A stretch of 24,337 nt of DNA, taken from positions 1-24,337 of IMG/VR virus record IMGVR_UViG_3300044580_000186, one strand, 5' to 3'. The position numbers and the translations under genes are program-made. This document shows positions 6,254 through 22,132 of the stretch, piece by piece. This stretch comes from a virus (Duplodnaviria; Caudoviricetes). Numbering within the stretch: position 1 is the stretch's first letter; every line of letters begins with the position of its first letter. Below the pieces are notes generated by a model that worked only from the letters and a program-made list of their open reading frames with translations, did not search any database and was not told where the DNA came from.

Positions 6254-6643
6254 ATGCCTCTGAGACGAGATTTAGTTCAGATTCATCCTAGTGATGTTGC
6301 ACTGATGCAGAAGGTTGAAGAGATAGCTGTGCGTACTGCTCAGCGGTTTGGTCTCTGTCTAACAAGAGTAGAACACAAGAGGCGGCCTCATCCAGGAGGA
6401 GCTTCTGGGTTGTGTTACTGCCAGAGAGGTGTAGTTGCGGTTGTTCTCAGATATCGGGAGGGGAAGGTTTGGTGGAAGAGAAGGTTATCTGATTGGGCTA
6501 TCTTTCGAACACTCGCTCACGAGCTTGCTCATCTCAAAGATAGCAGTCATAGTGAAGTGTTTGCTTCGTGGGATTTGAGAATATGGGAATGGATTCAGAA
6601 CGAATCCGGTTTGAATTTACATAGAGAGAGGTTCGGATACTGA
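6254..6643 (+). CDS. HExxH zincin metalloprotease-like protein (SprT/WLM/YgjP-like)
   Basis: TLAHELAHL…SHSEVF motif; RBS GAGGTG. Confidence 0.75.
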   Translation: MPLRRDLVQIHPSDVALMQKVEEIAVRTAQRFGLCLTRVEHKRRPHPGGASGLCYCQRGVVAVVLRYREGKVWWKRRLSDWAIFRTLAHELAHLKDSSHSEVFASWDLRIWEWIQNESGLNLHRERFGY

Positions 6644-6816
6644 TGACATTCAGACGGTTGAAGCAGAGATTGAATCGTTCTAACTTGATTGAGACTGAGT
6701 GGCGTCGACATCCGAACGAAGGCGGAAATGCTCAAGTGTATGGCGACACCAAAGTGAGTGGTCGTGCTGAAGTAAGAGGGTACTCTGTGGTCTCTGGTGA
6801 TTATGTTCTTAACTAA
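6643..6816 (+). pseudogene. 57-aa internally deleted paralog of the hexapeptide-repeat gene at 8742
   Basis: MTFRRLKQRLNRSNLIETEWRRHPNEGG aligns with MTFKKLKRVLDREGLVEADWHRHPNGGG, followed by only ~4 hexapeptide units. TGATG coupling to the upstream gene. Confidence 0.75.
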
Positions 6817-6854
6817 CTATCTCGACCCTGCTCTGTGCAGGTCTCCTTTCTACG

Positions 6855-6887
6855 AACGATCGGAGTTTTCTCCGATCGTTTTTTTTT
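6855..6887 (+). terminator. Intrinsic terminator
   Basis: Stem AACGATCGGAG/CTCCGATCGTT, TTTT loop, followed by a T run. Confidence 0.9.
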
Positions 6888-6920
6888 GTTTGGCAAAGAA
6901 AAGTGGTGTTAGTGTTGGTT

Positions 6921-6936
6921 GAGTAGATATAATGTA
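6921..6936 (+). promoter_or_regulatory. Recurring promoter-like motif (GAGTAGATATAATGTA)
   Basis: Just after a terminator and before RBS AAGGAG and ATG 6953. Confidence 0.75.
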
Positions 6937-6952
6937 TTGAAAGGAGAAATCA

Positions 6953-7291
6953 ATGATAATCACACAAAATGAAATGAACTTAATTTGTAAGTATCTGGAG
7001 AAGACCAACGCATCAGTCAGCCGGATCGAGAGGCAATCTGACGATGAGTTCGATCTCATTATCAGTGGTGAGAGGATTGAAAAAGGACTCAGAGAGCCTG
7101 TTAGATTCTCTGCATGGCTGCCTCTTGGAGCAATCAGAGACCTCACTCAATGGACAAGGAAAGAAATCGCCAACATGACAAGTTATCCGGAGATGGTTCT
7201 CGAAGGCGATTGGTCAGGAGTTCGAGACAGTTCCAAGGATCAGCTGTGGGCAATTTTCGAGAAATTCGTTCTTAAGAGAGGAGGTTTCTAA
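6953..7291 (+). CDS. Hypothetical protein
   Basis: Strong RBS AAGGAG. Confidence 0.8.
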   Translation: MIITQNEMNLICKYLEKTNASVSRIERQSDDEFDLIISGERIEKGLREPVRFSAWLPLGAIRDLTQWTRKEIANMTSYPEMVLEGDWSGVRDSSKDQLWAIFEKFVLKRGGF

Positions 7292-7497
7292 TGCACGTGT
7301 GTGATTCATGCGGAAAAACATACGAAGAGGCGTTGAAGTCAAAGGAGGTGATTTCTCAGAGAGGCTATTTCTGGCATTCTTCGTGTGCTAAGGTCTGCGG
7401 ATCAGAAGTACGGGGAGGTAGGCAGGTCTCAGTAGTGGCATTTCCTTCTGAGGGAATGTTCGTTCCTGAGACTATTCTTACGCCGTCGGAGGAGTGA
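7291..7497 (+). CDS. Small putative zinc-finger protein (CxxC…HxxC)
   Basis: TAATG coupling, RBS GGAGG. Confidence 0.75.
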   Translation: MHVCDSCGKTYEEALKSKEVISQRGYFWHSSCAKVCGSEVRGGRQVSVVAFPSEGMFVPETILTPSEE

Positions 7498-7748
7498 GTG
7501 TTGTGATTCAGGGAGAGTTCGATTTCACTACTGACTCTGTAGATTTTTCTACAGTACGGGTTGAGGAGAAGAGTAGAACGTATTATCGTGTATACGACAA
7601 CGAGCTTTTCATCGGATGTGTTCTCTCATATAAAGAGAAAGATGTGTATTGGGGATGTGTAACAGTTTCCAATCTCTGTTTTGGAAAGTATTCAAGCAAG
7701 GAGGAGGCGATTCAGGCTCTAGTGAAGTTCTCGAGGAGTAAGGGATAA
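7494..7748 (+). CDS. Hypothetical protein
   Basis: GTGA overlap with the previous stop. Confidence 0.7.
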   Translation: MSVVIQGEFDFTTDSVDFSTVRVEEKSRTYYRVYDNELFIGCVLSYKEKDVYWGCVTVSNLCFGKYSSKEEAIQALVKFSRSKG

Positions 7749-7919
7749 TCAGGTTTGTCTTCAGATGGTAGTACGAGAGTTGATTTCATCTTTTGTTTTT
7801 ATCAGTGAATACAGTGATCGTTTGATTATCGAGTGTTCCTTGTAACTTGGTTTGAGTATTGATGTTTTCTTTTTGTCTCATGATTGAGATGTGATGAAAG
7901 TTTCTTGAGATGGTGAGTC

Positions 7920-8150
7920 ATGAACGCCGTTGATGCTCTTAGACGCTGTTATGAAGAACCTGGAAGGCTTGTTTGTCGACCGGTTTCGTGGAGAGGTTCT
8001 GAGTGTGCAGTAGTGTGTGAGGAGGTGAGAAATCGAAAGGGGTTTACCCTTCTTCCAGTTTTAGGTAGGAGTGTTTCTCCTGCAATTACTCCTGCGATCT
8101 TCGAGGAGTGGGAAGTTCTTACATATGATGAGTTTTACTCAGGCACTTGA
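7920..8150 (+). CDS. Hypothetical protein
   Basis: ATG after GGTGA; ends in the phage-typical EEWEV motif region. Confidence 0.7.
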   Translation: MNAVDALRRCYEEPGRLVCRPVSWRGSECAVVCEEVRNRKGFTLLPVLGRSVSPAITPAIFEEWEVLTYDEFYSGT

Positions 8151-8187
8151 TGGAGACTCTTAGAAATCTCCAGAAGTGAGAGTTCTG

Positions 8188-8210
8188 CTCGAGTGAGTAG
8201 ATATAATGTA
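8188..8210 (+). promoter_or_regulatory. Recurring promoter-like motif (CTCGAGTGAGTAGATATAATGTA)
   Basis: 21 of 22 nt identical to the copy at 10461-10482. Confidence 0.75.
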
Positions 8211-8230
8211 GTGTAGAGAGGAGAGTTACG

Positions 8231-8692
8231 ATGGAGACAAGTGTTGATCTTTCTAGAGGTGAGATACGAACCATTGATGGGATTCCAATTCTGGCAGTGA
8301 GTTTGAAGTCTACTGGAGTGTCAACTGAGGATCGTGATTTCAACGGCCGTGTGAATAAGAAGGCTGTGAATCGAGTGTTGTATCACGGGATTACTCCTGG
8401 TGGAGCTCACGTGATGTTCGTTGGAGATTGTAGGGGAAAATCTCTTGAGAGTTTTCCGATCGATGAAGGTTTGATAGTTACTCTCGCCAAGATGGGAGAT
8501 CGTCGTCCTTCGTTCGAGTCTTGGGAGACTCCTGATCTAACACTCCGTCGAATGGCTACTCAGGGATTGATTCGATTTCAGGTGGCAGTCGACTTGCTAC
8601 TCAAGGAGTACGAGGGGAATGAGTCGGCTCTTGAGAGTCTGGACTATCTTGTCAAGCTTGCTGAGCTTGCTAAGGACCGATTGACTCAGTGA
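8231..8692 (+). CDS. Hypothetical protein
   Basis: RBS GAGGAG, downstream of the promoter motif. Confidence 0.8.
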   Translation: METSVDLSRGEIRTIDGIPILAVSLKSTGVSTEDRDFNGRVNKKAVNRVLYHGITPGGAHVMFVGDCRGKSLESFPIDEGLIVTLAKMGDRRPSFESWETPDLTLRRMATQGLIRFQVAVDLLLKEYEGNESALESLDYLVKLAELAKDRLTQ

Positions 8693-8741
8693 AGAGTTTC
8701 GAGAGGTTCTTCTTCTGCTGAATAGGTAGAAAGGATCTATC

Positions 8742-9365
8742 ATGACTTTCAAGAAGTTGAAGCGAGTGCTTGATCGCGAAGGTTTGGTTGAGGCTGATTG
8801 GCATCGACATCCAAACGGAGGAGGATGGGTACAGAACACAGCGACAGTCGCGGACACAGCATTCATCGGGCCTAACGCGGTGGTGTATGGTATGGCTAGA
8901 GTTCTCGACGAGGCCAGGATAACCTGTAGAGCTCGTGTGTTTGATCATGCTCGCGTATATGGGAAAGCGTGTGTATCTGGAGATGCTTGCATCTCTGGAA
9001 AAGCGTGTGTGTATGATTCTGCTCGTGTGTGCGATGACGCTAAGGTTCGTGAGAATGCTTGCGTGTTTCGAGGCGCTTGTGTGTCTGGTTATAGCGTCGT
9101 AGAAGGTGACGCTCAAGTGTTTGGCAGAGCTCAGATATTCAACAGTGCTCGTGTATTTGACCACGCACGTGTGTATGACGATGCTTGTGTGTACAACAGT
9201 GCTGAAGTGTCTGGTCGTGCTTGCGTATTTGGTCATGCTCACGTGTATCGGGAAGCTCATGTGAGTGGTTCTGCTCTGGTGTATGAGTATGCTCGAATCT
9301 TTGGATTCATCCAGGTATCTGGTGAAACTCAGATACACGGTAATGGTCAGATGTGCGGGTTGTAA
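8742..9365 (+). CDS. Hexapeptide-repeat (left-handed beta-helix-like) protein
   Basis: WHRHPNGGGWV N-terminus followed by more than 20 A-x-V-x-[GDN]-x units (ARVFDH, ACVSGD…); RBS AAGGA. Confidence 0.85.
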   Translation: MTFKKLKRVLDREGLVEADWHRHPNGGGWVQNTATVADTAFIGPNAVVYGMARVLDEARITCRARVFDHARVYGKACVSGDACISGKACVYDSARVCDDAKVRENACVFRGACVSGYSVVEGDAQVFGRAQIFNSARVFDHARVYDDACVYNSAEVSGRACVFGHAHVYREAHVSGSALVYEYARIFGFIQVSGETQIHGNGQMCGL

Positions 9366-9416
9366 TTATCTAGTAGTATTCAAACACATGAGAATGCTGA
9401 GACGTGTTTTGGAACG

Positions 9417-9686
9417 ATGATGAGGAGGAGGCGATACATGGTGGTTGTGCGCATCGTACTCGATGGTCAAACTGTCCGCCTAGTGCAGACGGCAGACCGA
9501 ACGTTGTATGAGGCAGAAGATGGGCTCGTGGTCGAGCCTTGTAATCCGTCCCGCCAAGGGACAACATCCTTCTGCTGCAAGCTTCAGGAGTACTGGGTAG
9601 GGCTTGGTGGTGCTCATGAGGTTTGGGATGCTTCCCATGAGGAGATGAAGGACCGAATAGGGCTAGGTGTATGCAGTGATAATTAA
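9417..9686 (+). CDS. Hypothetical protein
   Basis: Likely start ATG 9438 after GGAGG. Confidence 0.55.
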   Translation: MMRRRRYMVVVRIVLDGQTVRLVQTADRTLYEAEDGLVVEPCNPSRQGTTSFCCKLQEYWVGLGGAHEVWDASHEEMKDRIGLGVCSDN

Positions 9687-9721
9687 TTAGTATAGGGAGA
9701 CACTATTCAGAGGAGACAAGT

Positions 9722-9865
9722 ATGTGGATTTCTTCCATTGAATTTCTCAGACCTATCTTCATTGTTTTACTCAGTGTATGTGGTTTGAAGCATTTGATTG
9801 GCTTTCACTGGCTGTGGGAGAGATGTCCATGTTGTAGGAGGAAATGGGGAGAACATTCTATATGA
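9722..9865 (+). CDS. 47-aa membrane-associated protein with CPCC, not in ORF track (MWISSIEFLRPIFIVLLSVCGLKHLIGFHWLWERCPCCRRKWGEHSI)
   Basis: RBS GAGGAG; stop forms an ATGA overlap with the next gene. Confidence 0.65.
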   Translation: MWISSIEFLRPIFIVLLSVCGLKHLIGFHWLWERCPCCRRKWGEHSI

Positions 9866-10140
9866 ACTACATCGAAGTAGAAGGGAAGCAATTTCTGATA
9901 AGTCATGTTTCTGTATTCAGAGGATATGGTCCGGATAGAGTAAATCTCACGATATCAGGATTGGCTTCTGAGGTTCTTCACGACTCTCCAGAAATTATGA
10001 AGTACTACGGAGGCGACGTTGTTTTTACGGCGAAGATTGCAGAAGGATACGGAGAGCGGTTGGTTGAGTGTCTAGGGTTGAAGGTTGACGATGTAGTTAA
10101 CGTTGAAAGGCCTGCTGGAGAGGTGGAGAGTGTTAGATGA
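9862..10140 (+). CDS. Hypothetical protein
   Basis: ATGA-coupled start in frame with track ORF 9844..10140. Confidence 0.7.
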   Translation: MNYIEVEGKQFLISHVSVFRGYGPDRVNLTISGLASEVLHDSPEIMKYYGGDVVFTAKIAEGYGERLVECLGLKVDDVVNVERPAGEVESVR

Positions 10141-10405
10141 GGAAACTAAGACAATTCTGTATCTCCGATTTCTCAGCCGATTGAGACGGCTTACGAAACC
10201 TCCAACTCTTCAGCAACTAGATGTGTTGATTGAGGATGCGAGAGATTTGTTGGAGGGGAGATTGGTTCGAACGCTGTACGCCAGAAGAGTGAATGCTCCT
10301 AGATCTCTTGTTCAACAAGAAGTAAAACTTCTCTACAAGGCAGATCAGAGGTTGAAAAGGTTAGAAAGGAGAAGAAATCTGATGGGAGAGAGGAAGTCAG
10401 GATGA
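10130..10405 (+). CDS. Basic helical hypothetical protein
   Basis: GTG 10130 after GAGGTGG, in frame with track ORF 10103..10405. Confidence 0.65.
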   Translation: MLDEETKTILYLRFLSRLRRLTKPPTLQQLDVLIEDARDLLEGRLVRTLYARRVNAPRSLVQQEVKLLYKADQRLKRLERRRNLMGERKSG

Positions 10406-10460
10406 CTTCTAAGGAACTGCTGAAGTACTTAGCGATGTTGTTGTGTGTGATGTTAGTTTT

Positions 10461-10482
10461 CTCAAGTGAGTAGATATAATGT
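10461..10482 (+). promoter_or_regulatory. Recurring promoter-like motif (CTCAAGTGAGTAGATATAATGT)
   Basis: Near-identical to 8188-8209; followed by RBS GGAGG and ATG 10498. Confidence 0.75.
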
Positions 10483-10579
10483 GATGTGGAGGAAAATATG
10501 GAACGCGCGATTATCGATTGCGAACGGCAGAATCTGTCACCTTTTGATTCACAGAGAGTAGTAGATGTCTAAGAACATC

Positions 10580-10885
10580 TCTTGTTTTTCTATCTGTTAA
10601 GTAGTTAGATTCTTGCGGAGAATTCTAGTGAACCTTATCCAAGTGATCGAGATTCTGGCAGCGAAGTACTACTCGGTGCGTATAGTAGGAAGCCAGGGGA
10701 AATGGATGCTCCAAGTTGAGGAGAAGAAGTGGGGAACTTCGCACACCTTCGTGCACAGCTCTATCCAGGATGTTGTCTATCAGGCGAAGGAGAAGTTGCT
10801 ATCAGATCTTGTTTTTCTATCTGTTACGTAGTTAGATTCTTGCGGAGAACTCTAGTGAACCTTATCCAAGTGATCGAGATTCTGG
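10580..10885 (+). repeat. 79-bp direct repeat pair (10580-10658 and 10807-10885), two mismatches
   Basis: TCTTGTTTTTCTATCTGTTA[A/C]GTAGTTAGATTCTTGCGGAGAA[T/C]TCTAGTGAACCTTATCCAAGTGATCGAGATTCTGG. Confidence 0.95.
10613..10831 (+). CDS. Hypothetical protein or gene remnant spanning the repeat unit
   Basis: TTG start without a clear RBS; in frame with ATG 10565 but interrupted by TAA at 10598. Confidence 0.45.
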   Translation: MRRILVNLIQVIEILAAKYYSVRIVGSQGKWMLQVEEKKWGTSHTFVHSSIQDVVYQAKEKLLSDLVFLSVT

Positions 10886-10940
10886 AGATTCGGATCGGGA
10901 TCTAGACAGGAGTGGTTCTCATTCGTAGTATTGTGTAACA

Positions 10941-11435
10941 ATGGAGAGATCTAGAGGTCTATACGGAAAGCGTGTTCCAACAATTGATGATCTGAATCTT
11001 CGAACTGTAATCAGATTCTGGGGAATCAACGGCCAGTACGGACCGTTGAGTAACTTCTATCCAGTGAAAATCCACGTTGACGGAAAGGATTGGCCGTCTG
11101 TAGAACATTACTATCAAGCACAGAAGTCAACAGATGAAGCAATTCAAGAGTTTATCCGTCAAGCGAAAACTCCTGTAGAAGCGAAGAGGATTGGTCTATT
11201 TGGAATCAGGCTCCGAGATGACTGGGATAGTATTCGAGAAGACGTTATGAGAAAGGCTCTCGAGGCGAAATTCACCCGGAATAGGAGATGTCGAAGGGTT
11301 TTGATTTCAACGGGTCAGGCTGTCTTGTTTGAAGATGATTCAGTACCAACGTTCTGGTCCGGTCGAGGGCAGAACAAGCTTGGATTGCTTCTCATGGACA
11401 TTCGAGAAAATATCAAGAAGGCGAGAGGATACTAA
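10941..11435 (+). CDS. NADAR family protein (YbiA-like; ADP-ribose/N-glycosidic hydrolase)
   Basis: LSNFYP, WPSVEHYYQAQK, R-x-DWD, AKF, FW and GQNKLGLLLMDIR motifs. Confidence 0.92.
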   Translation: MERSRGLYGKRVPTIDDLNLRTVIRFWGINGQYGPLSNFYPVKIHVDGKDWPSVEHYYQAQKSTDEAIQEFIRQAKTPVEAKRIGLFGIRLRDDWDSIREDVMRKALEAKFTRNRRCRRVLISTGQAVLFEDDSVPTFWSGRGQNKLGLLLMDIRENIKKARGY

Positions 11436-11448
11436 CAAGAGGTAGGAA

Positions 11449-12750
11449 GTGATCAAGCGAGTTATTATCCAGAATTTTCAATCTCATAGAGATACTACTA
11501 TTGACTTCAGTGACAAGGATACGGTGATTGTTGGTTCTAGTGATTCCGGAAAGAGCGCGATTCTGAGAGCTATAGAATGGGTTAGAACTAATCGACCTCT
11601 TGGTACATCATTTATTCGAAATGGAGCTAACTCTCCTTGCCGTGTTGAGTTGATTGTGGATAGAGACGGAGAGGAGGTTTCTATCGTCCATGAGAAAACG
11701 ACGAAAAGAAATTCTTACTATGTCAACGGCCAGGAGTTTACTGCGGTTGGATCTGACGTTCCCAGAGAAGTGGTTGAGTTGCTTGGGATAGCGGACATCA
11801 ACGTTCAGCATCAGCTTGATCAGCACTTCTTGGTTCTTGATTCTCCAGGAAGAGTTGCTTCTTACATCAATTCAATCACAAAACTAGAAGATGCTAGCGA
11901 AGTTCAGGCTAGGATCGTTTCTGAGTTGAGGGAGCTTACGAAAGAGATTGAGGAGAAGAAGGGCGAAATTGCTCGACTAGAAGAGGAGGAGAAGAAACCT
12001 ATCTTCCAGGCTCTCGATGATTTCTCTTTCCTCATCGATAGAGGGGATGAGTTGTTGAAGGAGAAGGAGGAATCACAGGAGAAGAAAGAAAGGATTCAGA
12101 AGTGTATTCAGGACCTCCAGTTTGTTGAGAGTTCTCTGTTTCAGATCAACAGAAAGGTGGAGCTGCTCTCTTCAGTTGAAACTCTTTCGAGTCGATTTAC
12201 TGAGATTCGAGAGAGTCATCAAGAAAGGTGTAGAAAACTAAGCCGCCTAAAGGTTTTGAGCTCCGGTCTGAGTGAGTGTGTTGATGCTCTTGTTTGCGTG
12301 TGTCGAGATTTGGATCGTAGCAGGGCTATTGAATCGATATGCAGTCCTATCTTAGTTGTCTCTGGAGATCTCTCTAGCGTTGAGAAGTTGCGGCAGAGGC
12401 TAGAATCTCTCGTTAGGCAGTTGAAGGATTCTCTTGATGCTCTTTCTTCTACCGAGCGCAGTATTCGGCAGAAGGAGATGTTAATTAGTTCTCTTTCTTC
12501 TCTAGGGAAGATCAGAGATGATTACAGTGAGGTCACCAAGAAGAATCGAAGTCTATCTAGATTGGTGATGTCGATCAGAGAGAGTCAATCTAGTCTCTGT
12601 GAGTGTGAGAAGTCACTTGATCACTTAAGAAGTCAGCGGAAAGATTTTCTGGAGCAGATTGAAGTTTGTCCTCTCTGCAACGCCGTTCTTGATGACGATC
12701 GTAAGAATCATGTGATGAGGTGTTTAGATGAAGATTCTTCTCTTAGGTGA
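11449..12750 (+). CDS. Rad50/SbcC-like protein, N-terminal half (Walker A, Q-loop, coiled coil, zinc hook)
   Basis: IQNFQSH, GSSDSGKS, QHQLDQ, long heptad region, CPLC near the C-terminus; no Walker B. Confidence 0.9.
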   Translation: MIKRVIIQNFQSHRDTTIDFSDKDTVIVGSSDSGKSAILRAIEWVRTNRPLGTSFIRNGANSPCRVELIVDRDGEEVSIVHEKTTKRNSYYVNGQEFTAVGSDVPREVVELLGIADINVQHQLDQHFLVLDSPGRVASYINSITKLEDASEVQARIVSELRELTKEIEEKKGEIARLEEEEKKPIFQALDDFSFLIDRGDELLKEKEESQEKKERIQKCIQDLQFVESSLFQINRKVELLSSVETLSSRFTEIRESHQERCRKLSRLKVLSSGLSECVDALVCVCRDLDRSRAIESICSPILVVSGDLSSVEKLRQRLESLVRQLKDSLDALSSTERSIRQKEMLISSLSSLGKIRDDYSEVTKKNRSLSRLVMSIRESQSSLCECEKSLDHLRSQRKDFLEQIEVCPLCNAVLDDDRKNHVMRCLDEDSSLR

Positions 12751-13633
12751 TCTTCACCTTCGTTATCGAGGACCTGTGAGTCGCAAAGATGATTTCTTTC
12801 AGACTCAGTTTCGTAAGTTTGTTGAAGTGCTCGAAGTTTATCACGATAAGAAGTGCTCTGCACTACTTCAGGCCGGTGATTTCTTCGATTCGCCCAGGCC
12901 TCCAAACTTCCTGATGGCGAGATATATTGATCTACTCAAGAAGAGAGGTGTTGTTCCGTGGTGTGTTCTTGGCCAACACGATGTGTCAATGCATAACCTC
13001 GAGAGTGTCGAGAGAAGTGCTGTTAACGTGTTCAGTGCCTCTGGAGTGTATGAAGGATTGGGGCACAAACCTAGAGAGCTTGGGGACATCCTTGTCTATG
13101 GAGCTTCTTGGGGACAGGATATTCCTACTCCTGAGCGAAACTCGAGAGCGATCCTCGTTATTCATGCTATGATTGGTGATCGTCCCCTCTATCCAGGACA
13201 TGAACCTATTCGGCCGAAATCGTTCTGCCACAATCACAGTGGGTATGAGTTGATCTTATGTGGTGATTATCACTATCCGTTTACTTCTACAGAAGACGGT
13301 AGGACTATCACTAACTGTGGAGCTCTTGTTCGGTTGAATACAAGAGATCGCGATTTGAGGCCTCAAGTCCAAGTTTACGATACAAACACTAAATCTCTCG
13401 AGGTGATTGAGATTAGCTATCAACCTAGTGAGGAGGTCTTTACTGTTTCTGAAGAAAATCCGACTGATTGCAACGAATCTGTTGTTGCATTTGTAGAACG
13501 TTTAAGGGCAGAAGGGCAGATGAGTGTCAGTTTTCGAGACAATCTCGTTAGGTTCTTCGAAACACATCAAACTCCGATTGGAGTTCGGAGTGAGATCTAT
13601 CGTATCCTAAGTGAGGTAGAGGAGAGAGAGTGA
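12728..13633 (+). CDS. Mre11/SbcD-like metallophosphoesterase nuclease
   Basis: GDLH, AGDFFD, GQHD, IH, GDYH and NCGA motifs. Confidence 0.9.
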   Translation: MKILLLGDLHLRYRGPVSRKDDFFQTQFRKFVEVLEVYHDKKCSALLQAGDFFDSPRPPNFLMARYIDLLKKRGVVPWCVLGQHDVSMHNLESVERSAVNVFSASGVYEGLGHKPRELGDILVYGASWGQDIPTPERNSRAILVIHAMIGDRPLYPGHEPIRPKSFCHNHSGYELILCGDYHYPFTSTEDGRTITNCGALVRLNTRDRDLRPQVQVYDTNTKSLEVIEISYQPSEEVFTVSEENPTDCNESVVAFVERLRAEGQMSVSFRDNLVRFFETHQTPIGVRSEIYRILSEVEERE

Positions 13634-13690
13634 TTGAGATGTTCGTTGATTTTGACGAAGATTGGGTCCAAATGTTGGTGAGGTGAGTGA

Positions 13691-13957
13691 GTGAACACTT
13701 CGGAAAAGATCGAAGCTCTATCTAAGAAGTTGAAGGAGGCGTCTGAGGAGATCAAACGTCTCGAGACAAAAAAGGCTGTTCTCGAGAATAACAGAGACAA
13801 CTACATCAAGCAGCTCGAAACTGAGTTTGGTGTATCGACTGTCGAGGCTGCTGAGAAGTTGATTGCCGAGTACGAAGAAGTAATCAAGCAGCTCGAAAAT
13901 CAAGTAGCTGAGATTGAGGCATCCCTCGATCAGGTGATGGAAAGTGCTAAGTCCTAA
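13691..13957 (+). CDS. 88-aa coiled-coil protein in the SbcCD module
   Basis: Two heptad helices separated by FGVST; GTG start after GAGGTGA. Confidence 0.8.
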   Translation: MNTSEKIEALSKKLKEASEEIKRLETKKAVLENNRDNYIKQLETEFGVSTVEAAEKLIAEYEEVIKQLENQVAEIEASLDQVMESAKS

Positions 13958-14552
13958 GTATCGAGATTTTCTGAGTTACAATCGAGCGGTTCTTCAAACA
14001 ATCAGGGAGAATCGAACAAAGGTTCTCGGTAGGTTAGTGGATCTTGAGAAGAAGAAATCCAATCTTGATCAGGCGAGAGACATCGTCAATGCCGTGATCA
14101 TCAGTACTTTGGAGGAAGTTCGGGTTTTTATCGAGGAAGCTGTTACCCTTTGTCTCGAGACTGTCTACGGATCTGAGTATTCGTTTTCTCTTGAGTATGA
14201 AGTAAAGCGAGGGAAGAGTGAGGCTCGAGTAGCAATTGTCAAATCAGGAGAAAAACTCAATCCACGAGACGAGGTTGGAGGAGGAGTAATCGACGTGGCT
14301 TCTATTGGATTGAGATTTGCTGGATGGATCCTTCAGGCGAATAGAAGTCGTCCAATCTTTCTCTTCGACGAGCCATTCAGGTTCGTATCTCGAGATTTGA
14401 CTTCTAGAGTTGTTGAGATGCTTCACAAGATTTGTGAAGCCTTCAACGCTCAGATCATCATGGTGTCTCATAACGATGAGTTGATTGAAGGAGCAACTAG
14501 AACACTATCTGTTCAGTTTCGACCTGAAGGGAGTGTAGTCTCTCAAGCATGA
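13944..14552 (+). CDS. Rad50/SbcC-like protein, C-terminal ABC-ATPase half
   Basis: Signature-like EVGGG, Walker B/D-loop FLFDEPF, H-loop MVSH; no Walker A. Confidence 0.88.
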   Translation: MLSPKYRDFLSYNRAVLQTIRENRTKVLGRLVDLEKKKSNLDQARDIVNAVIISTLEEVRVFIEEAVTLCLETVYGSEYSFSLEYEVKRGKSEARVAIVKSGEKLNPRDEVGGGVIDVASIGLRFAGWILQANRSRPIFLFDEPFRFVSRDLTSRVVEMLHKICEAFNAQIIMVSHNDELIEGATRTLSVQFRPEGSVVSQA

Positions 14553-15241
14553 TAATCAGGCCTGCTCTTGCTTCTGATGTTTCTGGGATTAAGAGGATTT
14601 TTAACCATCCTGATGTTGTTGGAAAGTTAGGTGCGTTTTCTTCTACTGATTCTATTCGGTCTCGAATTAGTACTAAGAGGCCTTCTATGTTCGTTGCTGT
14701 GGAGGAGAACTCAATCATTGGTGCCTGTGAAATCTCTTCGAGACCTCAACCTCATATCATGAGGTTTGGCCGCGTGGCTGTTGATGGTGATAACTGGCTG
14801 AGGCGCAGGGTTGGATCGGCTCTCTATGTCACAGTAGTCTTCCAAGGACTACTCGAAGGGAGAAGACTCTTCTACGATGGGTGCGTTGAAGATAACAAAC
14901 CTCATCATCAGTTTCTTCTCTCTCTAGGTTTCGAGATTTGTGGATTCTATTACCAGAGAACTTCTACTGGAAAGTCGATCTTCGAGTTTGTATTTTATCC
15001 TGAGAGGAGTTTTGATCATTTGATTACTCGTCTTCTTCCATCTCTACAGTATCGAGGGCAAATCTACACTAGTTCAGTTGTTGAGAAGAACAGATCGAGA
15101 TCGCTCTCTAAAGTTAGAGAGCATCTTCCTGAGATATTTCATTTCATGGTATCCGTCCCTCTTAGGTTCAGAGAAGCGGATGTTCAGATATCGTGTGTAG
15201 ATGGCTCGACTGTTAAGCAGAATACGTTTGAGGTGATGTGA
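14549..15241 (+). CDS. GNAT-family acetyltransferase with C-terminal extension
   Basis: IIRPA…D N-terminus, VAV…RRRVGSAL acetyl-CoA motif A, N…FLLSLGF motif; ATGA overlap. Confidence 0.8.
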   Translation: MIIRPALASDVSGIKRIFNHPDVVGKLGAFSSTDSIRSRISTKRPSMFVAVEENSIIGACEISSRPQPHIMRFGRVAVDGDNWLRRRVGSALYVTVVFQGLLEGRRLFYDGCVEDNKPHHQFLLSLGFEICGFYYQRTSTGKSIFEFVFYPERSFDHLITRLLPSLQYRGQIYTSSVVEKNRSRSLSKVREHLPEIFHFMVSVPLRFREADVQISCVDGSTVKQNTFEVM

Positions 15242-15780
15242 TGCCGAAGATGCACAGACCTTGTTCTAATGAAGAAGAAGAGTTCATTCGACAGGTTCTT
15301 GGAAAATATCATCAGAGGCTTGTTTGTGCAGAGGTTAAGGTTGGTGTTTTCTTTACTCGAGCTTCTCGAAATTCCTTCGGAGAGATTGAGAGTCCTGCTA
15401 TTATCTGTCGCGGATCACCTGCTTACGCGGTGACTCGGCTGACTTCTCCTAAAGAGAGAGTTTTTGTTCCATATGATGCTATCATAGAAATCGATGAAGA
15501 TCAGTGGAGTGACTATTTGAGCGAGGAGCAAAGAGTTGCCCTTGTTGATCATGAGTTAACTCATCTAGAAATCATTCGCAAAAATGGTGAGATTGAGTTG
15601 TGTTCTGATTCTCGACCCAAGCTCAGGTTGCAGAACCACGATTGGCAATCAACAGGATTTCTTGAAGTTCTGAGTCGTCACAGAGAGAATTCTCTGGAGC
15701 TTCAAGATTTGAACAATGTTCTAGATGCGGTGAGTGCTTGCGTAGAAGAAGGAGAGACAAGTGAACAATCTACGTCCTGA
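15238..15780 (+). CDS. Putative phage metallopeptidase (HExxH)
   Basis: YDAIIEI…W…ALVDHELTH…L..HD…F..V..RH pattern. Confidence 0.8.
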   Translation: MMPKMHRPCSNEEEEFIRQVLGKYHQRLVCAEVKVGVFFTRASRNSFGEIESPAIICRGSPAYAVTRLTSPKERVFVPYDAIIEIDEDQWSDYLSEEQRVALVDHELTHLEIIRKNGEIELCSDSRPKLRLQNHDWQSTGFLEVLSRHRENSLELQDLNNVLDAVSACVEEGETSEQSTS

Positions 15781-16774
15781 AGAAGCCAAGACTCTCTTTG
15801 CTCATCTCGTTATCTCAGGAGGAGCCCCTTCTGAAGATCTTTCTGCATTTATCCACAAGTGTTGTAATGGTTCAACCTCTCAGTATATGTGTCTGCCGAA
15901 ACTGGGAACTGCTGTTTTCTCTCGAGTAGGTCGAGAAGTTAAAGTTGAGTGTGATTCGACAGAAGATACTGCCCTTAAAGAGCGGTGTCGAGCTCTCACG
16001 GAGGAGATGAGTAGGTTTCTAGATGAAAGTGATAAGAGAGAGCTCATTGTAGAGACAGTTTCTCTTGTTAGTCCTTCGTTTGAAATCATGACTCCTTCTG
16101 ATTGGATGAGATGTTTTCCTGTGTCCTTAGAGGTTGCGGGAAGAGTCTGCTACAAGAGTGAAGAGAGGATAACTAGCCAATCTGCTGATGAATTCGTTCG
16201 GAGGATTATTAAGCGAGGACATGAATCGGTGTTAGAACACTGTTCAGTTACAGTTAAGATTATCTGTGACCGATCGTGTAGTCATCAATTAGTGAGACAT
16301 CGGATTGCAAGTTATTTACAGGAATCTCAACGATTCTGTGATTACTCAAGCAAAGGATTTCAGATTATCTGTCCTCCTTCTATCTCGAACAGCTCTGGTT
16401 GTGTGTTTGGATTTTTGATAGTTCAAGAGAACAACTTGCTCAAAGGAGATCTGTATCAGATTTGTGGGCAAACTGTAGAACCTTTTGTTCCTCAGCCCTT
16501 CCTTCTAGAGTGGATTAGAAGGAGATTTCTGGATTATTCTGAGTATGTTGAGCTTCGAAAGAGAGGAATTCCTCCAGAGGATGCGAGAAGCGTTCTTCCT
16601 AACTGTACGAAGACAGAGATTGTTGCTACCTTCAACTTGAGGCAGTGGAGGCATGTTTTTAAGGAGAGAGCGTTGAATAAACATTCTCAGTGGCAGATTC
16701 GAATGATTTTTTCTTCGATTCTAGAGGAGTTTTCTAAACTTCTTCCGTGTGTGTTTGAAAATCTGGTATACTAA
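15761..16774 (+). CDS. thyX: FAD-dependent thymidylate synthase with ~95-aa N-terminal extension
   Basis: AGRVCYKS, GHESVLEH, SHQLVRHRIASYLQESQRF, PEDARSVLP, NLRQWRH and QWQIR. Confidence 0.93.
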   Translation: MNNLRPEEAKTLFAHLVISGGAPSEDLSAFIHKCCNGSTSQYMCLPKLGTAVFSRVGREVKVECDSTEDTALKERCRALTEEMSRFLDESDKRELIVETVSLVSPSFEIMTPSDWMRCFPVSLEVAGRVCYKSEERITSQSADEFVRRIIKRGHESVLEHCSVTVKIICDRSCSHQLVRHRIASYLQESQRFCDYSSKGFQIICPPSISNSSGCVFGFLIVQENNLLKGDLYQICGQTVEPFVPQPFLLEWIRRRFLDYSEYVELRKRGIPPEDARSVLPNCTKTEIVATFNLRQWRHVFKERALNKHSQWQIRMIFSSILEEFSKLLPCVFENLVY

Positions 16775-16803
16775 AGTAGGTACACTAGATAGGAGGTTCT
16801 GCA

Positions 16804-17319
16804 ATGCTGAAACGAGTAGTTCTAGGGTTTACACTGGTGATCTTCTCTGGTTGTGCATCGACTGCTGATGAAGCGTTGATGAACATGAGAAGACAAGCTC
16901 TTGAAAATTCGGATCTGTATCGAGCTGCTGCCAAAGCCTACGCAGATTCGGCCGATCAGATAGCGTCTCAGAAGCATCAGTTTCAAGAGATGATTCTTGC
17001 AGAGAGAGACAAGGCTTGGAGGGAAGCAAATACCGTGAATGGAGTAATCCAGGTCTCTCCTGAAGAACTTGCTGATATGTTGAAACGAAGGGATGAAGCG
17101 TACAAGAAACTTGCTGAATCTAGAGCAGTATGGTCTCGAGTTTCGAATGATTATCGTAAGATGGTAGATGATAAGTACGCATTTGACCAGATGGTTTACA
17201 GTCAAGAGGTCGATGCTCAGAAGGCTAAAGAATCGTTGAAGGGAGCGCTGAATTCGGCGCTTCATTTCATGCTGGGTGTAGGAGCTACGGCGGCTCCGCT
17301 GATTCCTCTTGCATTCTAA
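16804..17319 (+). CDS. Coiled-coil lipoprotein with hydrophobic C-terminus (spanin-like candidate)
   Basis: MLKR + hydrophobic core + FSG-C lipobox; helical body; C-terminal SALHFMLGVGATAAPLIPLAF; RBS AGGAGG. Confidence 0.7.
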   Translation: MLKRVVLGFTLVIFSGCASTADEALMNMRRQALENSDLYRAAAKAYADSADQIASQKHQFQEMILAERDKAWREANTVNGVIQVSPEELADMLKRRDEAYKKLAESRAVWSRVSNDYRKMVDDKYAFDQMVYSQEVDAQKAKESLKGALNSALHFMLGVGATAAPLIPLAF

Positions 17320-17338
17320 CTAACACAGGAGATCAATC

Positions 17339-17656
17339 ATGGCAGATCCGAAAGATCTATACGATTTAGGTCCTGCAGCTAACCCTATTGATGCTTCCGA
17401 TTTCGAAGCTAAGAGAAAAGCGTGGTATGCTGATCGAGATCGAATGATCTCAGAAGTTCTTCCGGAAGTGACTCGGGCAATCACTGAGCTTGAGAGTACC
17501 GCCGAGTTGGTGAACAATATTGTTTCTCTTGGCCAGCAGCTTCTTCCTCTCCTCATTCAGTATACTCAGAAGGCTGCTGTCCAACCGGTTGAGAAGACTA
17601 CTCTGGAGAAACTCCAGAGTCTTCAGAAGTTTCTCCAGAGTTGTCAGAACTGTTAG
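17339..17656 (+). CDS. Hypothetical helical protein
   Basis: RBS AGGAG; precedes a terminator. Confidence 0.75.
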   Translation: MADPKDLYDLGPAANPIDASDFEAKRKAWYADRDRMISEVLPEVTRAITELESTAELVNNIVSLGQQLLPLLIQYTQKAAVQPVEKTTLEKLQSLQKFLQSCQNC

Positions 17657-17685
17657 TTTCTGAAGTTTTACTCTCCTCTCCGCGC

Positions 17686-17723
17686 CACAGGCAGAAATTG
17701 TGGATATTTCTGCCTGTGTTTTT
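17686..17723 (+). terminator. Intrinsic terminator
   Basis: 13-bp stem CACAGGCAGAAAT/ATTTCTGCCTGTG followed by T5. Confidence 0.85.
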
Positions 17724-17725
17724 AT

Positions 17726-17741
17726 GAGTTGATATAATGTA
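17726..17741 (+). promoter_or_regulatory. Recurring promoter-like motif (GAGTTGATATAATGTA)
   Basis: Directly after the terminator and before RBS AAGGAG. Confidence 0.7.
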
Positions 17742-17765
17742 GATAGTCTTGGAAGGAGTATCATT

Positions 17766-18170
17766 GTGCTTACTCTACTGTTTGTGTCTTCGATTCAGTT
17801 CTTGCAACGAGTTGAAACTGTGAAGATGGAAGTTACTGCTTACTGTACTTGTAAAAAGTGTTGTGGTAGGTACGCGCGAGGAATCACAGCATCAGGAAAG
17901 AAAGCCCAAGGAAAGATGATTGCTGCTCCCAAGAAGTATTCATTTGGGACTCAGATGTATGTTGAGGGATATGGATGGGCACAAGTTCAAGATCGAGGAG
18001 GAGCTATCAGAGAGGCAGGAGCGATGCTACCAAAGGGGTTGAAGGTTGGGACTACCAAGATTCCTCAGAGAATCCTGAAGTATGATAAGATAGATCTTCT
18101 CATGCCGTCTCATGGAGAAGCATTGAAATGGGGAAAACAGATAAAGAACGTTGTAGTTGTTCGACAGTGA
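17766..18170 (+). CDS. 3D-domain (MltA-like) putative peptidoglycan lytic protein
   Basis: VTAYCxCxxCCG, GITASG, IAA…FGT, QDRGGAI and IDL motifs; hydrophobic N-terminus. Confidence 0.88.
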   Translation: MLTLLFVSSIQFLQRVETVKMEVTAYCTCKKCCGRYARGITASGKKAQGKMIAAPKKYSFGTQMYVEGYGWAQVQDRGGAIREAGAMLPKGLKVGTTKIPQRILKYDKIDLLMPSHGEALKWGKQIKNVVVVRQ

Positions 18171-18185
18171 TTGTATAATGTGTTG

Positions 18186-18304
18186 AGGCTTGTGGTGAGC
18201 TCGGAACCGCTAGGAAGGAGAGAACGTCTCTCCTTCCTTGCTTTTTGGTTCTGCTGTGTGTGCTAGATACATCGATACTCACAAGCAGTCCAGTCTGGTT
18301 TTTT
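18186..18304 (+). ncRNA. Candidate structured small RNA 1
   Basis: TATAAT at 18174-79; nested helices 18188-94/18280-86, 18202-08/18247-53 and 18212-23/18227-38; T6 at 18299-304. The inner hairpin plus T5 could instead be a simple terminator. Confidence 0.4.
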
Positions 18305-18341
18305 GAATTGCTTGGTTCTTGGTCGTGTATGTATAATAGGT

Positions 18342-18519
18342 ATGTCGGTACTTGTAGGCAGTCTAGCAGAGGAGGATTTGCCTATGGTCTAAGTATCGTT
18401 CAGGTCTCCAAGAGTGACATCGAGAGCAAGGCTCAAGATCAAGGAATAGCTAGAGAGGTTTGGTTGGGAGAGTCTTGCTGTCAGAAAATCGCTAGAGTAA
18501 AATCTAGCGATTTTCTTTT
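18342..18519 (+). ncRNA. Candidate structured small RNA 2
   Basis: TTGCTT-18bp-TATAAT promoter (18308-18337), several G-U-containing helices, and a terminal 14-bp terminator hairpin. Confidence 0.5.
18483..18519 (+). terminator. Intrinsic terminator
   Basis: Stem AGAAAATCGCTAGA/TCTAGCGATTTTCT with T-rich 3' end. Confidence 0.8.
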
Positions 18520-18676
18520 GTGAAATGTGTTTGAACATCCTCAGGATGTAGAATACTCACAGGAGATAGCGATGCTAGAGAGCTATCAACTTATGATTTC
18601 AGATCTTCTTGTTCTTTGGAGAGTCTTTCCCCTGAAGAGATTCTAAGGCTCGACAAGATCTGAAGAAGAGAGTGTT

Positions 18677-18883
18677 TTGATGGAATCGACACTACTAACT
18701 AGAAATGTTTCAAAGAATCATTTCGTGATGAAGTGGACTTGTTGCGGACATCTTTGGGAATTGATCATTACTCGACAGTTTCCTGAAAGGAAGCATTTCA
18801 AACCAGAGTGTCCTAACTGCAAGGAAAGAGGGTTGTCACTAGTAGAGTGTTTGGGAGAAGTCGGTCAACCGACTCTATTTTAA
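18677..18883 (+). CDS. Zinc-ribbon protein
   Basis: TCCGHLW…CPNC; start probably ATG 18680. Confidence 0.7.
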   Translation: MMESTLLTRNVSKNHFVMKWTCCGHLWELIITRQFPERKHFKPECPNCKERGLSLVECLGEVGQPTLF

Positions 18884-18957
18884 TTCTGAGGACAAGACTT
18901 GATAGTCCTTACAAGGTTCTGGGATACTGAGAAGAGTAGTTGGGTTGCGGTTAATCC

Positions 18958-19167
18958 ATGAAGTGGATCTCTTTCCTTTCGATGATTCTTGATATGGTTG
19001 GCCTCTACCTCAGAGAGAAGGCTGATCAAGCAGAGTTGAGGAGAAGTCTTCACGATCGAGTTGAAAAAGCATTTCAGAGCTTTTCGGACGCAGTTGCGAA
19101 AGGCGATGAAGATAGAGTAGCGAGAGAACTTTCGGATCTAATTCATTCGGAGAAGAAGAATGATTGA
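18958..19167 (+). CDS. Small protein with hydrophobic N-terminus and helical tail (i-spanin-like candidate)
   Basis: MKWISFLSMILDMVGLYL followed by a charged helix. Confidence 0.6.
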   Translation: MKWISFLSMILDMVGLYLREKADQAELRRSLHDRVEKAFQSFSDAVAKGDEDRVARELSDLIHSEKKND

Positions 19168-19480
19168 CAAAAAAGTTGATAGAGCAGTGGATGAGATTCT
19201 GAACGAGCAAGGAGAAGGATGGGATAATAACGATGCAGATGTGGTGAGTGTTGATGCATATACTGTTATGGAGATACGGGGTGAACTGTTAGAAATTCGA
19301 CTCATGAGGATGTCTAACGGAAAGTATCGGATTTCTGCCGCTGGTCCATATCCAAATAATAGTGTTTCTGGATTCAGTATTTCGCTTGATGATCTTCTTG
19401 AAGGTGCAGCAACACTCAAAGAGTGGTATGATGAAGCAATGAAGATCATTCAGATAAGTAAGGAACATGGGATTGTGTAG
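19160..19480 (+). CDS. Hypothetical protein with N-terminal DEILNEQ leader
   Basis: RBS GGAG, overlaps the previous gene; paralog remnant at 19785. Confidence 0.75.
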   Translation: MIDKKVDRAVDEILNEQGEGWDNNDADVVSVDAYTVMEIRGELLEIRLMRMSNGKYRISAAGPYPNNSVSGFSISLDDLLEGAATLKEWYDEAMKIIQISKEHGIV

Positions 19481-19549
19481 AGGGGTTTTATGGTGGAGTT
19501 GATGGAGTGCTTCGGAGCTTTTCGGACGCAGTTTTTGCTAAGGACTCAA

Positions 19550-19792
19550 GTGAGACTTGTTAGTGTGGTTGTTGCTAGTTTTCTCCTACTCACCTGCTCT
19601 TGCACTCCTCAGGTCGTTTACCTCTCTTCGAGTGAGAAAGTCTATCGAGTTCCTTCTGGGTCGATTGTAACAAAGCCTGATGGATCTTCATTTAAGATAG
19701 AGTTCAATGGATACGTCATCAGTGATGGAACTTTGATAGAACTGTATCGGTTAGCGAAGCAGAACATTGAGGAGAATAAGATCGATGAGTGA
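19550..19792 (+). CDS. Small lipoprotein (o-spanin-like candidate)
   Basis: GTG 19550 after TAAGGA gives MRLVSVVVASFLLLTCSC, a signal peptide with an imperfect lipobox. Confidence 0.6.
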   Translation: MRLVSVVVASFLLLTCSCTPQVVYLSSSEKVYRVPSGSIVTKPDGSSFKIEFNGYVISDGTLIELYRLAKQNIEENKIDE

Positions 19793-19974
19793 TAACATTG
19801 GCAAAGCAGCGGACAAGATTTTGAACGAGCAAGATCGAAGAGGTATATATTGTCCATATAGAGGGAAAATCATACGAGATTGGTAGCAAAGAGTTCAGAG
19901 CTGTTCTTGAGTATTCTGTTCAGACAGTGCAAGAGATTTTAACAACAGGCCGAGAAGTACTTTTCTATCTGTGA
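19785..19974 (+). pseudogene. Frameshifted paralog of 19160..19480
   Basis: MSDNIGKAADKILNEQ, then a shift near 19833 into EEVYIVHIEGKSYEIG…LFYL*. Confidence 0.65.
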
Positions 19975-20003
19975 TTTTTCTTCACACTCATGTATAACAA
20001 TGT

Positions 20004-20777
20004 ATGAGTTACATCCTCAAATCGAGAGGTCCTGTTCATCTTCTTCGCTGTGGATTTGATTGTGATATTTATGCTATAAAGTCTGATCGTCTTCTTGTCT
20101 ACAAGCACTATGCCAAGTACAAGCTCGGAAGTGTTTTGTTTGGAAGATCTTCTCCAGCTACATTCATTCAATCTCTTTCTGCCAAGCATCCGTCTTGTCT
20201 CGAACACATAATTGATATAGATGACGAAGGGTACTTGACTTTTTCATATCCTCCGGCAGGTGATTTTCTTTTCTATCGAGCAGGAAACTCTCTTGATAAG
20301 AGGCTTGGAAATACAACAATCAAAGCAATTTCAAATCTACTAAGAGAAGTGCATCATAACGATTTGACTCCTGACAATATTCTCGTCGGTCCTTCTGGAT
20401 TGATTGTTACAGATTGGTCCTGTAGAAATGAACAACCGTACTATAGTTTTCTTTCTGATTCTGACTCAATGAACAATCTGGTCGATTGCGTTCGAGGAAG
20501 GAAGATCTGGTTTCCAATTGTTAATTACAAGATGCTTCAGATTTATGCGTTGAAGATGGGATTGAGTTATATGTACTCTCAAGAAGAATTCGATCCAGTG
20601 GTTGTAGCTAGGTGTGTTTTTGCTAGGTTTTCGAGTAGTAAGATTTTAGAGGAGTGTGGATTTAGAGGAGAGATTCCTTTTGACTCATTTGTTTCTCTGT
20701 TTGAATTTTTTACTCGGAATCACAAAGAGTTGATGAAAGAAAATATTCTGAGGATTAAGCAATGGGTCAAACGATAA
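20004..20777 (+). CDS. Protein-kinase-like/aminoglycoside-choline phosphotransferase-fold protein
   Basis: Catalytic loop HNDLTPDNIL, metal-binding TDW, and a VYK lysine near the N-terminus. Confidence 0.7.
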   Translation: MSYILKSRGPVHLLRCGFDCDIYAIKSDRLLVYKHYAKYKLGSVLFGRSSPATFIQSLSAKHPSCLEHIIDIDDEGYLTFSYPPAGDFLFYRAGNSLDKRLGNTTIKAISNLLREVHHNDLTPDNILVGPSGLIVTDWSCRNEQPYYSFLSDSDSMNNLVDCVRGRKIWFPIVNYKMLQIYALKMGLSYMYSQEEFDPVVVARCVFARFSSSKILEECGFRGEIPFDSFVSLFEFFTRNHKELMKENILRIKQWVKR

Positions 20778-21148
20778 GAGTGCTTGCTGAGAAGAAACTT
20801 CCTCTTGAACGATGGTCGGCAATGATGCGCTTCGTTTCTGCTGAGACAATCCATGTTTATTGGAGAAATGTGAGAGTTGTTTTTGATCTCAGTCAGTTTA
20901 GAATTGCGCTCAAGAATTTTTCTACTGCTGTTGCAAAGTGGATAGGGATTGGATCTCCTTATGGAAAAGGAGATATTCTACTGATGAATGAGTTGATAAG
21001 AGATACTCCAGAAGAGATTTGTGTTGTTGTTGAGGAAGTTCAGGGGAATGTTGTTCACATTCACTATGGTGATGTTCGATTTGAAATGTGTAAGGAGAAC
21101 TTCGTGAGGTTTGCTCAATGTCTATGTGAAGCTAAAGAAAACATCTGA
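20762..21148 (+). CDS. Hypothetical protein with internal duplication
   Basis: TIHVYWRNVRVVFDLSQF resembles VVHIHYGDVRFEMCKENF. Confidence 0.75.
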   Translation: MGQTIRVLAEKKLPLERWSAMMRFVSAETIHVYWRNVRVVFDLSQFRIALKNFSTAVAKWIGIGSPYGKGDILLMNELIRDTPEEICVVVEEVQGNVVHIHYGDVRFEMCKENFVRFAQCLCEAKENI

Positions 21149-22063: not shown

Positions 22064-22078
22064 GTATCTGAGAGGAGA

Positions 22079-22120
22079 TACACACTAGGGGATACTTTCC
22101 CCTAGTGTGTACTCTGTTTT
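22079..22120 (+). terminator. Strong hairpin, probable terminator or processing site
   Basis: 14-bp stem TACACACTAGGGGA/TCCCCTAGTGTGTA followed by CTCTGTTTT. Confidence 0.65.
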
Positions 22121-22132
22121 GAGAGGTTTGAG

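Follow-up and report, generated by a model that had tools for sequence, protein, structure and literature searches.

The stretch from position 18343 to 18519 on the + strand of a sludge phage record is tentatively assigned as the likely site of a non-coding phage transcript that stands alone and measures about 177 nt, with its ends deduced from a -10 box and a T-run. Such an RNA would start behind the promoter-like box TGTATAAT and stop at a 14-bp terminator, and it is probable that the box fires, the hairpin terminates, and a discrete RNA is made. That the RNA also has a function as RNA is conceivable and is held with more reserve. Evidence counted for the transcript comprises the largest gap between genes, the placement of TATAAT and TGTABAAT boxes, a terminator of gene strength, the lack of an antiterminator, and the lack of a credible gene. 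Counted against it are the lack of a homolog and hence of covariation, ordinary folding of the body, a background share of G-U pairs, an off-class -10 context, and a weak -35 element. An earlier sequence-only reading had proposed such an RNA; every motif and helix listed there was found at its coordinates, so that the observation is confirmed, its interpretation is partly supported, and a plausible small-RNA candidate from a single genome results.

The window analysed here is the whole virus record of 24,337 nt. It encodes a T4-like portal (Pfam E 1.6e-46), a terminase-like protein (PHROG E 9.5e-5), and, according to a Pfam search, an SbcCD-like nuclease set, ThyX, a NADAR protein, and a 3D-domain protein, all of them on the + strand. 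Near-identical DNA was present in wastewater, digester, and sludge runs. The first 14 bases of the window are identical to a loose contig end and presumably represent a remnant of a sequencing adapter. The closest relatives of the portal show 50–53% identity, and in five of eight related records homologs of the window genes at 21148 and 21572 come within about 1 kb after the portal. In the window, these usual neighbours are separated from the portal by a block of about 17 kb (3571–21000) that carries small genes along with the SbcCD-like, ThyX, and NADAR genes, and this block (3.6–21 kb) was missing from that place in the relatives examined. Because the spacing between portal and neighbours is about 1 kb in those five records, the small-gene block, including the candidate RNA, appears to be particular to this lineage. 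With 401 nt versus 211 nt for the next, the gap between 18170 and 18572 exceeds all others between called genes in the window. Its upstream flank is the gene for the 3D-domain protein (17766–18170, + strand, 134 aa; Pfam 3D E 4.7e-6), which also matched peptidase-like families of PHROG. Further upstream, a lipoprotein-like gene (16804–17319) belongs to an unannotated family with 33 relatives; Pfam and PHROG searches gave no match for it, and in an attempt to assign a host all its Atlas matches scored below 0.8.

The putative start of the transcript is set by TGTATAAT at 18330–18337 (+ strand), found in a scan for -10 classes and containing a perfect TATAAT hexamer at 18332–37. The sequence-only reading had taken this hexamer together with TTGCTT at 18308–13 for a promoter. 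The hexamer and the 18-nt spacer between the two boxes held up, but TTGCTT matches the -35 consensus at only three of six positions, and the promoter at 18308–37 is missing from the list produced by a generic consensus scan. TATAAT occurs eight times on the + strand of the window versus once on the - strand; each of the eight + strand copies is located at a gene boundary, and for six of them a gene start follows shortly 3'. A tight promoter class of 16 nt, TGAGTAGATATAATGT, was found in five gaps (at 6208, 6928, 8202, 10475, and 17733), with each site shortly 5' of a ribosome-binding site and start and often directly after a terminator hairpin. The sites at 18174 and 18332 fall outside this main class, with ranks 19 and 33, the latter obtained with a matrix built from seven other sites. 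They belong to a second -10 class, TGTABAAT, of which four copies exist (129, 18172, 18330, and 18547), all on the + strand and all outside genes. Besides the copy at 18330, these comprise TGTATAAT of the upstream unit (18172–18179), a third promoter-like site, TGTAGAAT, 3' of the terminator (18547–18554), and the copy at 129, which precedes terL at a place where the upstream frame ends at 114. The pattern was defined after two of its four copies had been seen, and the count is unremarkable, as at least four copies were reached in 13 of 100 shuffles; the copies other than the two first seen both lie 5' of a start codon. Because one copy precedes terL, TGTABAAT may be a late-type promoter.

The other boundary is a hairpin resembling an intrinsic terminator at 18483–18519 (+ strand), with a T-rich 3' arm and tail. 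Its 14-bp stem (18483–96/18503–16) is perfect, with 14 of 14 pairs of the Watson-Crick type, as had been claimed, and its predicted stability of -19.7 kcal/mol compares with -19.6 and -17.2 kcal/mol for the terminators after ordinary genes. As a prediction, it provides the intrinsic terminator expected of an independent bacterial-type sRNA gene. Comparison within the phage itself supported the proposal of a promoter-to-terminator unit devoid of a credible gene. For ranking of folds, all 62-nt windows were compared with a composition model, which yielded 401 non-overlapping minima and avoids hand-picked ends. On this scale, the terminator ranks 3, a hairpin in the upstream unit 6, and the two internal hairpins of the candidate 45 and 117. 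The most stable hairpin of the window (rank 1 of 401) lies at 22073–22125 between the genes at 21572 and 22133, and rank 5 is taken by an inverted repeat with 23-nt arms at 17596–17645, inside the 3' end of a 105-aa gene.

Between these boundaries, two hairpins are predicted on the + strand. Hairpin 1 (18346–18398; rank 117) consists of two stacked 8-bp helices, 18346–53/18391–98 with one G-U pair and 18354–61/18378–85 with two; it encloses a Shine-Dalgarno-like motif and pairs an ATG. Hairpin 2 (18422–18482; rank 45) has a 10-bp core helix, 18425–34/18470–79, with one G-U pair and a purine-rich, weakly paired top. The core helices are well defined in the predicted ensemble, with pair probabilities mostly above 0.9, and the hairpins fold better on the + than on the - strand (-18.3 versus -8.6 and -21.6 versus -11.0). 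A closing ATGT/ACAT helix suggested earlier (18342–45/18417–20) is present as 4 bp but formed neither in the minimum free energy structure nor in the predicted ensemble. The 178-mer including the terminator reaches -63.3 kcal/mol with a z of -4.7, unmatched by any of 200 shuffles. This strong value is due to the terminator, since the body without it has a z of -1.64 and was equalled by 12 of 200 shuffles, not clearly beyond chance. Hairpin 2 has a z of -3.8 at hand-picked ends yet ranks only 45 across the window, and both internal hairpins were unexceptional among the 784 windows of a fixed tiling. G-U pairs, which had been taken to indicate selection at the RNA level, make up 18% of the 44 pairs of the body versus 16±6% in 173 tiles, and 40% of tiles are as high; with a share at background on a G-rich strand, they are no sign of selection. 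Overall, the internal structure of the predicted RNA is weakly supported, and its boundaries are supported best.

No credible protein-coding frame was found in the unit; a two-codon and a 16-codon ORF remain. GAGGAGG (18369–75) is followed after an 8-nt spacer by ATG-GTC-TAA (18384–92), giving a minigene at 18369–18392 on the + strand. The statement that the motif precedes only two codons overlooked the in-frame ATG at 18342, from which a 16-codon ORF without a ribosome-binding site runs to the same stop (18342–18392, + strand). These remains raise the alternative that the unit is a decayed small-gene cassette, i.e., the relic of a tiny gene, or a strain variant of one, with a stop at codon 3 and with a transcript that plays no role as RNA. 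Its order of promoter, Shine-Dalgarno motif, start, stop, and terminator is that of neighbouring cassettes, and two other promoter-like sites stand directly before 24-codon ORFs with good ribosome-binding sites (10498–10572 and 18572–18646). The next in-frame stop after that of the minigene (18447) lies 5' of the terminator, the internal folding is unexceptional, and absence of the 3.6–21 kb block beside the portal of relatives is as expected of a region with fast turnover. However, opening the start region of the minigene would cost 10.8 kcal/mol versus 7.5±2.4 kcal/mol for 35 putative starts, of which three are as high, and a decayed cassette leaves both the upstream unit and the cluster of GCTAGA hexamers described below unexplained. 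Contigs from two other studies match 17761–18388 and 18449–18650 with zero differences, and no variants were seen inside the unit in the two runs covering parts of it; the stop of the minigene falls in the 60 nt between these two stretches (18389–18448). Decay of a small gene is considered rather unlikely.

A second such unit upstream had been claimed as well, and folding supported this tandem arrangement. The candidate small transcript at 18186–18305 (+ strand; ends deduced from the sequence) would measure 60 nt if it ends at the first hairpin and about 120 nt if it ends at the T-run at 18299–18304. Its fold has a z of about -3.15 to -3.5 (-3.5 for 18186–18300), mostly from one long hairpin. 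A strong hairpin followed by T5 at 18209–18246 (+ strand; -21.8 kcal/mol; rank 6 of 401) likely also terminates the 3D gene. The two units were rejected as paralogs, as 101 of 500 shuffles reached their alignment score and no model match was found between them.

Downstream, the 24-codon ORF at 18572–18646 (+ strand) has its own promoter-like site (18547), and its ribosome-binding site consists of the same 10 nt as that before the gene at 17339. It would encode a mildly hydrophobic product of 24 aa (GRAVY 0.68), starts in a predicted loop with GCTAGA, and overlaps a 30-nt imperfect inverted repeat (18598–18664). Two small RNA candidates beside a short, mildly hydrophobic ORF resemble type I toxin-antitoxin loci with neighbouring sRNAs, such as dinQ-agrAB. 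Unlike in such loci, only 7 nt are complementary to the start of the ORF and the duplex ranks 113 among 797 windows, and an antisense role towards neighbours was rejected. Pairing with neighbouring transcripts was no better than with random windows and cofolding stayed at the level of controls in a target screen confined to the 24 kb of the window.

The hexamer GCTAGA occurs six times between 18262 and 18579, on the + strand at 18262, 18449, 18491, and 18574 and on the - strand at 18362–67 and 18503–08, and a near-copy, GCTAGG, is found at 18209. Counting both strands, six of the ten copies in the window lie within 410 nt (binomial p 4.5e-9). The cluster is the best of all hexamers in 117 tiles, and any hexamer reached six copies in only 2 of 3000 shuffles. 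When the two terminator arms are counted once, five copies remain, with a p of about 3e-4 after correction for all hexamers; five copies of some, mostly purine-rich, hexamer were seen in 47 of 3000 shuffles and in 7 of 59 real tiles. In related records, 23 of 809 tiles reach six or more copies of some hexamer. The clustering in the gap is thus suggestive of more than chance but not decisive. Copies at 18262 and 18574 are predicted to be unpaired (0.8–1.0) and the copy at 18449 partly so (0.4–0.7), so that predicted loops hold three copies wholly or in part, including one at the start codon of the 24-codon ORF. The candidate RNA itself carries four copies, only one of which is in a predicted loop, and the complementary copy in hairpin 1 is predicted to pair with the Shine-Dalgarno motif.

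The same boxes might instead mark a DNA-level landing site for a protein, such as a replication origin, a packaging site, or a regulatory site, with the transcripts being incidental, primers, or R-loops. At origins of phage T4, short transcripts serve as primers and form R-loops. This explanation is kept alive because the + strand boxes are in helical phase: the five GCTAG boxes (18209, 18262, 18449, 18491, and 18574) are phased at 10.42 nt with an R of 0.98, reached by 0.4% of random placements, in a post hoc analysis of five sites, one of which has a mismatch. GCTAGA is also scarce elsewhere in the window (4 copies versus about 9.6 expected), and three promoter-like sites stand within 400 nt. 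On the other hand, the - strand copies, two in number, do not share this phase, no consensus extends beyond 6–7 nt around the boxes, and in 809 tiles of eight related records no comparable GCTAGA cluster was found, with at most two copies per tile. An origin of replication was rejected on the basis of GC skew, as the skew shows no turn and no AT-rich stretch is present. A DNA site is considered quite unlikely.

Genes on the same strand follow the promoter, both hairpins, the short ORF, and the terminator, an order that would also suit a leader or attenuator that controls read-through into the small genes from 18572 onward. In PMC10914365, premature-termination 5' UTR RNAs are described as common in virulent phages, with 29 candidates. 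Against a leader, no fold competes with the terminator: the antiterminator alternative reaches -46.7 kcal/mol versus -63.9 kcal/mol, in a test that covers alternative folds and has protein-driven antitermination outside its reach. Given a cost of 17 kcal/mol for opening the terminator and a separate promoter-like site for the next ORF, a riboswitch is unlikely and was rejected. A further promoter-like site also follows the terminators at 17686 and 6855, as it does here, and control of read-through appears improbable. Improbable to much the same degree is a silent -10 box at 18332 with no transcript at all and with helices that are chance folds between two terminators. The weak -35 element, the off-class -10 context, and the unexceptional folding would fit, but a 14-bp terminator would then have nothing to terminate, and the largest gap of the window would be left unexplained.

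The decoy role proposed for the minigene fared poorly. Ribosomes would load at GAGGAGG and the ATG and would be sequestered or would shed peptidyl-tRNA-Val, as lambda bar minigenes act through ribosome sequestration or peptidyl-tRNA shedding. With its 7-nt Shine-Dalgarno motif, 8-nt spacer, AUG, one sense codon, and UAA, the layout resembles that of lambda bar and synthetic minigenes. According to PMC2490762, translation in Pth-defective systems is inhibited by short minigenes, with accumulation of peptidyl-tRNA, and wild-type pth cells showed no peptidyl-tRNA. Unlike in those minigenes, the start codon is predicted to be paired (probability above 0.9), as is the 3' half of the Shine-Dalgarno motif. 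In addition, 4 of 29 sites with a Shine-Dalgarno motif and ATG on the + strand of the window end within three codons, so that such minigenes are frequent by chance. A functional minigene is very doubtful.

That the 92-aa (or 87-aa) ORF at 18245–18523 (+ strand), which spans both units, is a real gene is highly improbable: a frame of such length is open on the coding strand, was called by a gene caller on this contig, and scores -0.03 in its second half, within the range of small genes, but overall it scores -0.09 per codon (small genes, -0.07 to +0.18; off-frame, -0.19±0.07), lacks a ribosome-binding site, starts in one T-run, crosses the promoter box, runs through both terminators to end beyond the second T-run, and has no homolog among proteins of 50–161 aa except the gene call on the same contig and no match in Pfam or PHROG. 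On the + strand, one frame stays open for 113 codons between 18182 and 18646, interrupted by a single TGA at 18521, and then continues in frame into the 24-codon ORF.

Searches for relatives of the non-coding candidate included an Rfam scan as proposed by the sequence-only reading. No match at the gathering threshold was found in the window with Rfam 15; with E up to 1 over the whole window, a single chance match appeared elsewhere in it, and with E up to 10 over 18160–18580, six matches all fell on the two terminator hairpins at 13–19 bits versus thresholds of 50–82. ARAGORN reported no gene in the window. By blastn, 18150–18560 gave short chance matches (E 1–5) to four of 50,697 phage records, and 18170–18580 matched none of 72,556 plasmids. 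When viral contigs were scanned with 15-mers (33 loci) and metagenome contigs with 17-mers (23 loci), blastn and tblastn showed none of these loci to be related to the window. Viral contigs were also scanned with gapped motifs, which returned 16 and 35 loci with best model scores of 12.2 and 9.7 bits, which fell on terminator-like or seed-matching pieces.

Neighbouring genes were also used as anchors. The 3D protein led to three distant loci only, the lipoprotein gene at 16804 to none in viral contigs, though 33 protein relatives exist, and the portal as a single sequence to no locus. An alignment of portals recovered 80 of 244 loci plus one genome locus at 28% identity; such a distant (28%) portal relative is carried by a 179-kb contig (L148) in an Asgard archaeal genome bin. 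Fifty whole records were searched, i.e., 49 of the 80 portal loci plus one further record (L002). Here, the DNA of the element gave 15–19-nt chance matches in six of 50, a covariance model built from the one sequence gave none in 50, and a lipoprotein profile, run on 47 of the 50, gave a single weak off-target match. Twenty stretches from eight of the records contained no relative by the model or by eye, and nhmmer over the collected loci reached a best E of 0.13 on loci pre-selected by seed. These blank searches do not show absence, given the low sensitivity of a model built from one sequence, the fragmentary state of most records, and a closest portal at only 50–53% identity. None of the runs that contain the stretch is on record as RNA, so that they bear on expression neither way, and two runs guessed to be RNA match 19058–19486 only, which says nothing on expression of the unit. 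Literature searches returned no paper on this element. Six of its short motifs were not found in the searched part of the supplement of PMC10690425, a catalogue of 10,006 candidate viral structured RNAs; the element may already be present in this catalogue.

The phage group does carry non-coding RNA genes. Three related records contain canonical one-piece tmRNA genes upstream of terL, at 15137–15472 of locus L149 (record G003), 16541–16896 of L159 (G005), and 3159–3514 of L167 (G004); that of G003 sits within a tRNA cluster, and tRNAs were found in two related records. The gap of the window, with a stretch of about 334 nt, is tmRNA-sized, but unlike those loci it was blank in ARAGORN and Rfam, whose tmRNA model does detect the tmRNAs of the relatives, and a tmRNA or tRNA-like identity was rejected. 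In L149, about 110 unannotated nt between tRNA-Asn and the tmRNA (15010–15120) have a predicted 8-bp closing helix and no Rfam match at gathering thresholds. Another record (G009, locus L168), scanned with ARAGORN, has long gene-free multi-hairpin stretches at 1280–1885 and, on the - strand, at 13297–13600, the latter with three similar units of 20–25 nt and a T-arm-like hairpin.

The closest described counterparts are orphan small non-coding RNAs of virulent phages, namely ncRNA1 and ncRNA2 of PAK_P3, those of phiKZ, and other candidates from Pseudomonas phages, as presented in PMC10914365. They share with the candidate a length of 100–200 nt, an intergenic or UTR location, a large tailed phage as carrier, the lack of a Shine-Dalgarno-led ORF of at least 10 codons, and a function that is open. 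Those RNAs were demonstrated by sequencing or northern blot, are conserved within a genus, and are in many cases UTR-derived or processed, whereas 18343–18519 has its own predicted promoter and terminator and is known from the sequence of one genome alone. The candidate at 18343–18519 belongs to none of the described families tested.

If the stand-alone transcript is made, its most likely mode of action would be in trans as a protein-binding small RNA. A putative protein that recognises GCUAGA in hairpin loops would be titrated by this RNA and by the upstream RNA, and, as the start codon of the 24-codon ORF downstream also bears GCUAGA, the RNAs would set the translation of that ORF. CsrB, RsmY, and RsmZ are sRNAs that titrate a protein. 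The logic would be that of CsrB and CsrA with a different motif, and the likeness, as proposed, consists of a short motif that recurs in hairpin loops and on a start region and of an own promoter and terminator. Unlike CsrB and the Rsm RNAs, the candidate has no Rfam match, its motif GCUAGA has only one copy in a predicted loop, and Csr-type GGA repeats were rejected (4 GGA in 140 nt versus 3.3 expected). Titration was chosen as the reading because pairing with neighbours was negative, GGA repeats are absent, and the minigene is occluded; it is speculative and unlikely as a specific mechanism, and no candidate RNA-binding protein for loop GCUAGA was identified. In a more elaborate version, which appears distinctly unlikely, two phage RNAs encoded in the gap would represent a new structured class and would form one module with the leader of the 24-codon ORF, wired by GCUAGA and UCUAGC. 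Such a module would have loop copies of GCUAGA in hairpin 2, in the upstream RNA, and at the start codon of the ORF, and the complementary copy in hairpin 1 could kiss any of them and free the buried Shine-Dalgarno motif.

Few phage small RNAs have a known function. In PMC10914365, phage small RNAs are called understudied. If the unit is a decayed cassette, it would be ordinary. If it is transcribed, it would be a small RNA without an Rfam match from an uncultured phage group with tmRNA and tRNA genes among its relatives, and its sharp predicted ends and repeated motif would lend themselves to a direct mutational test.
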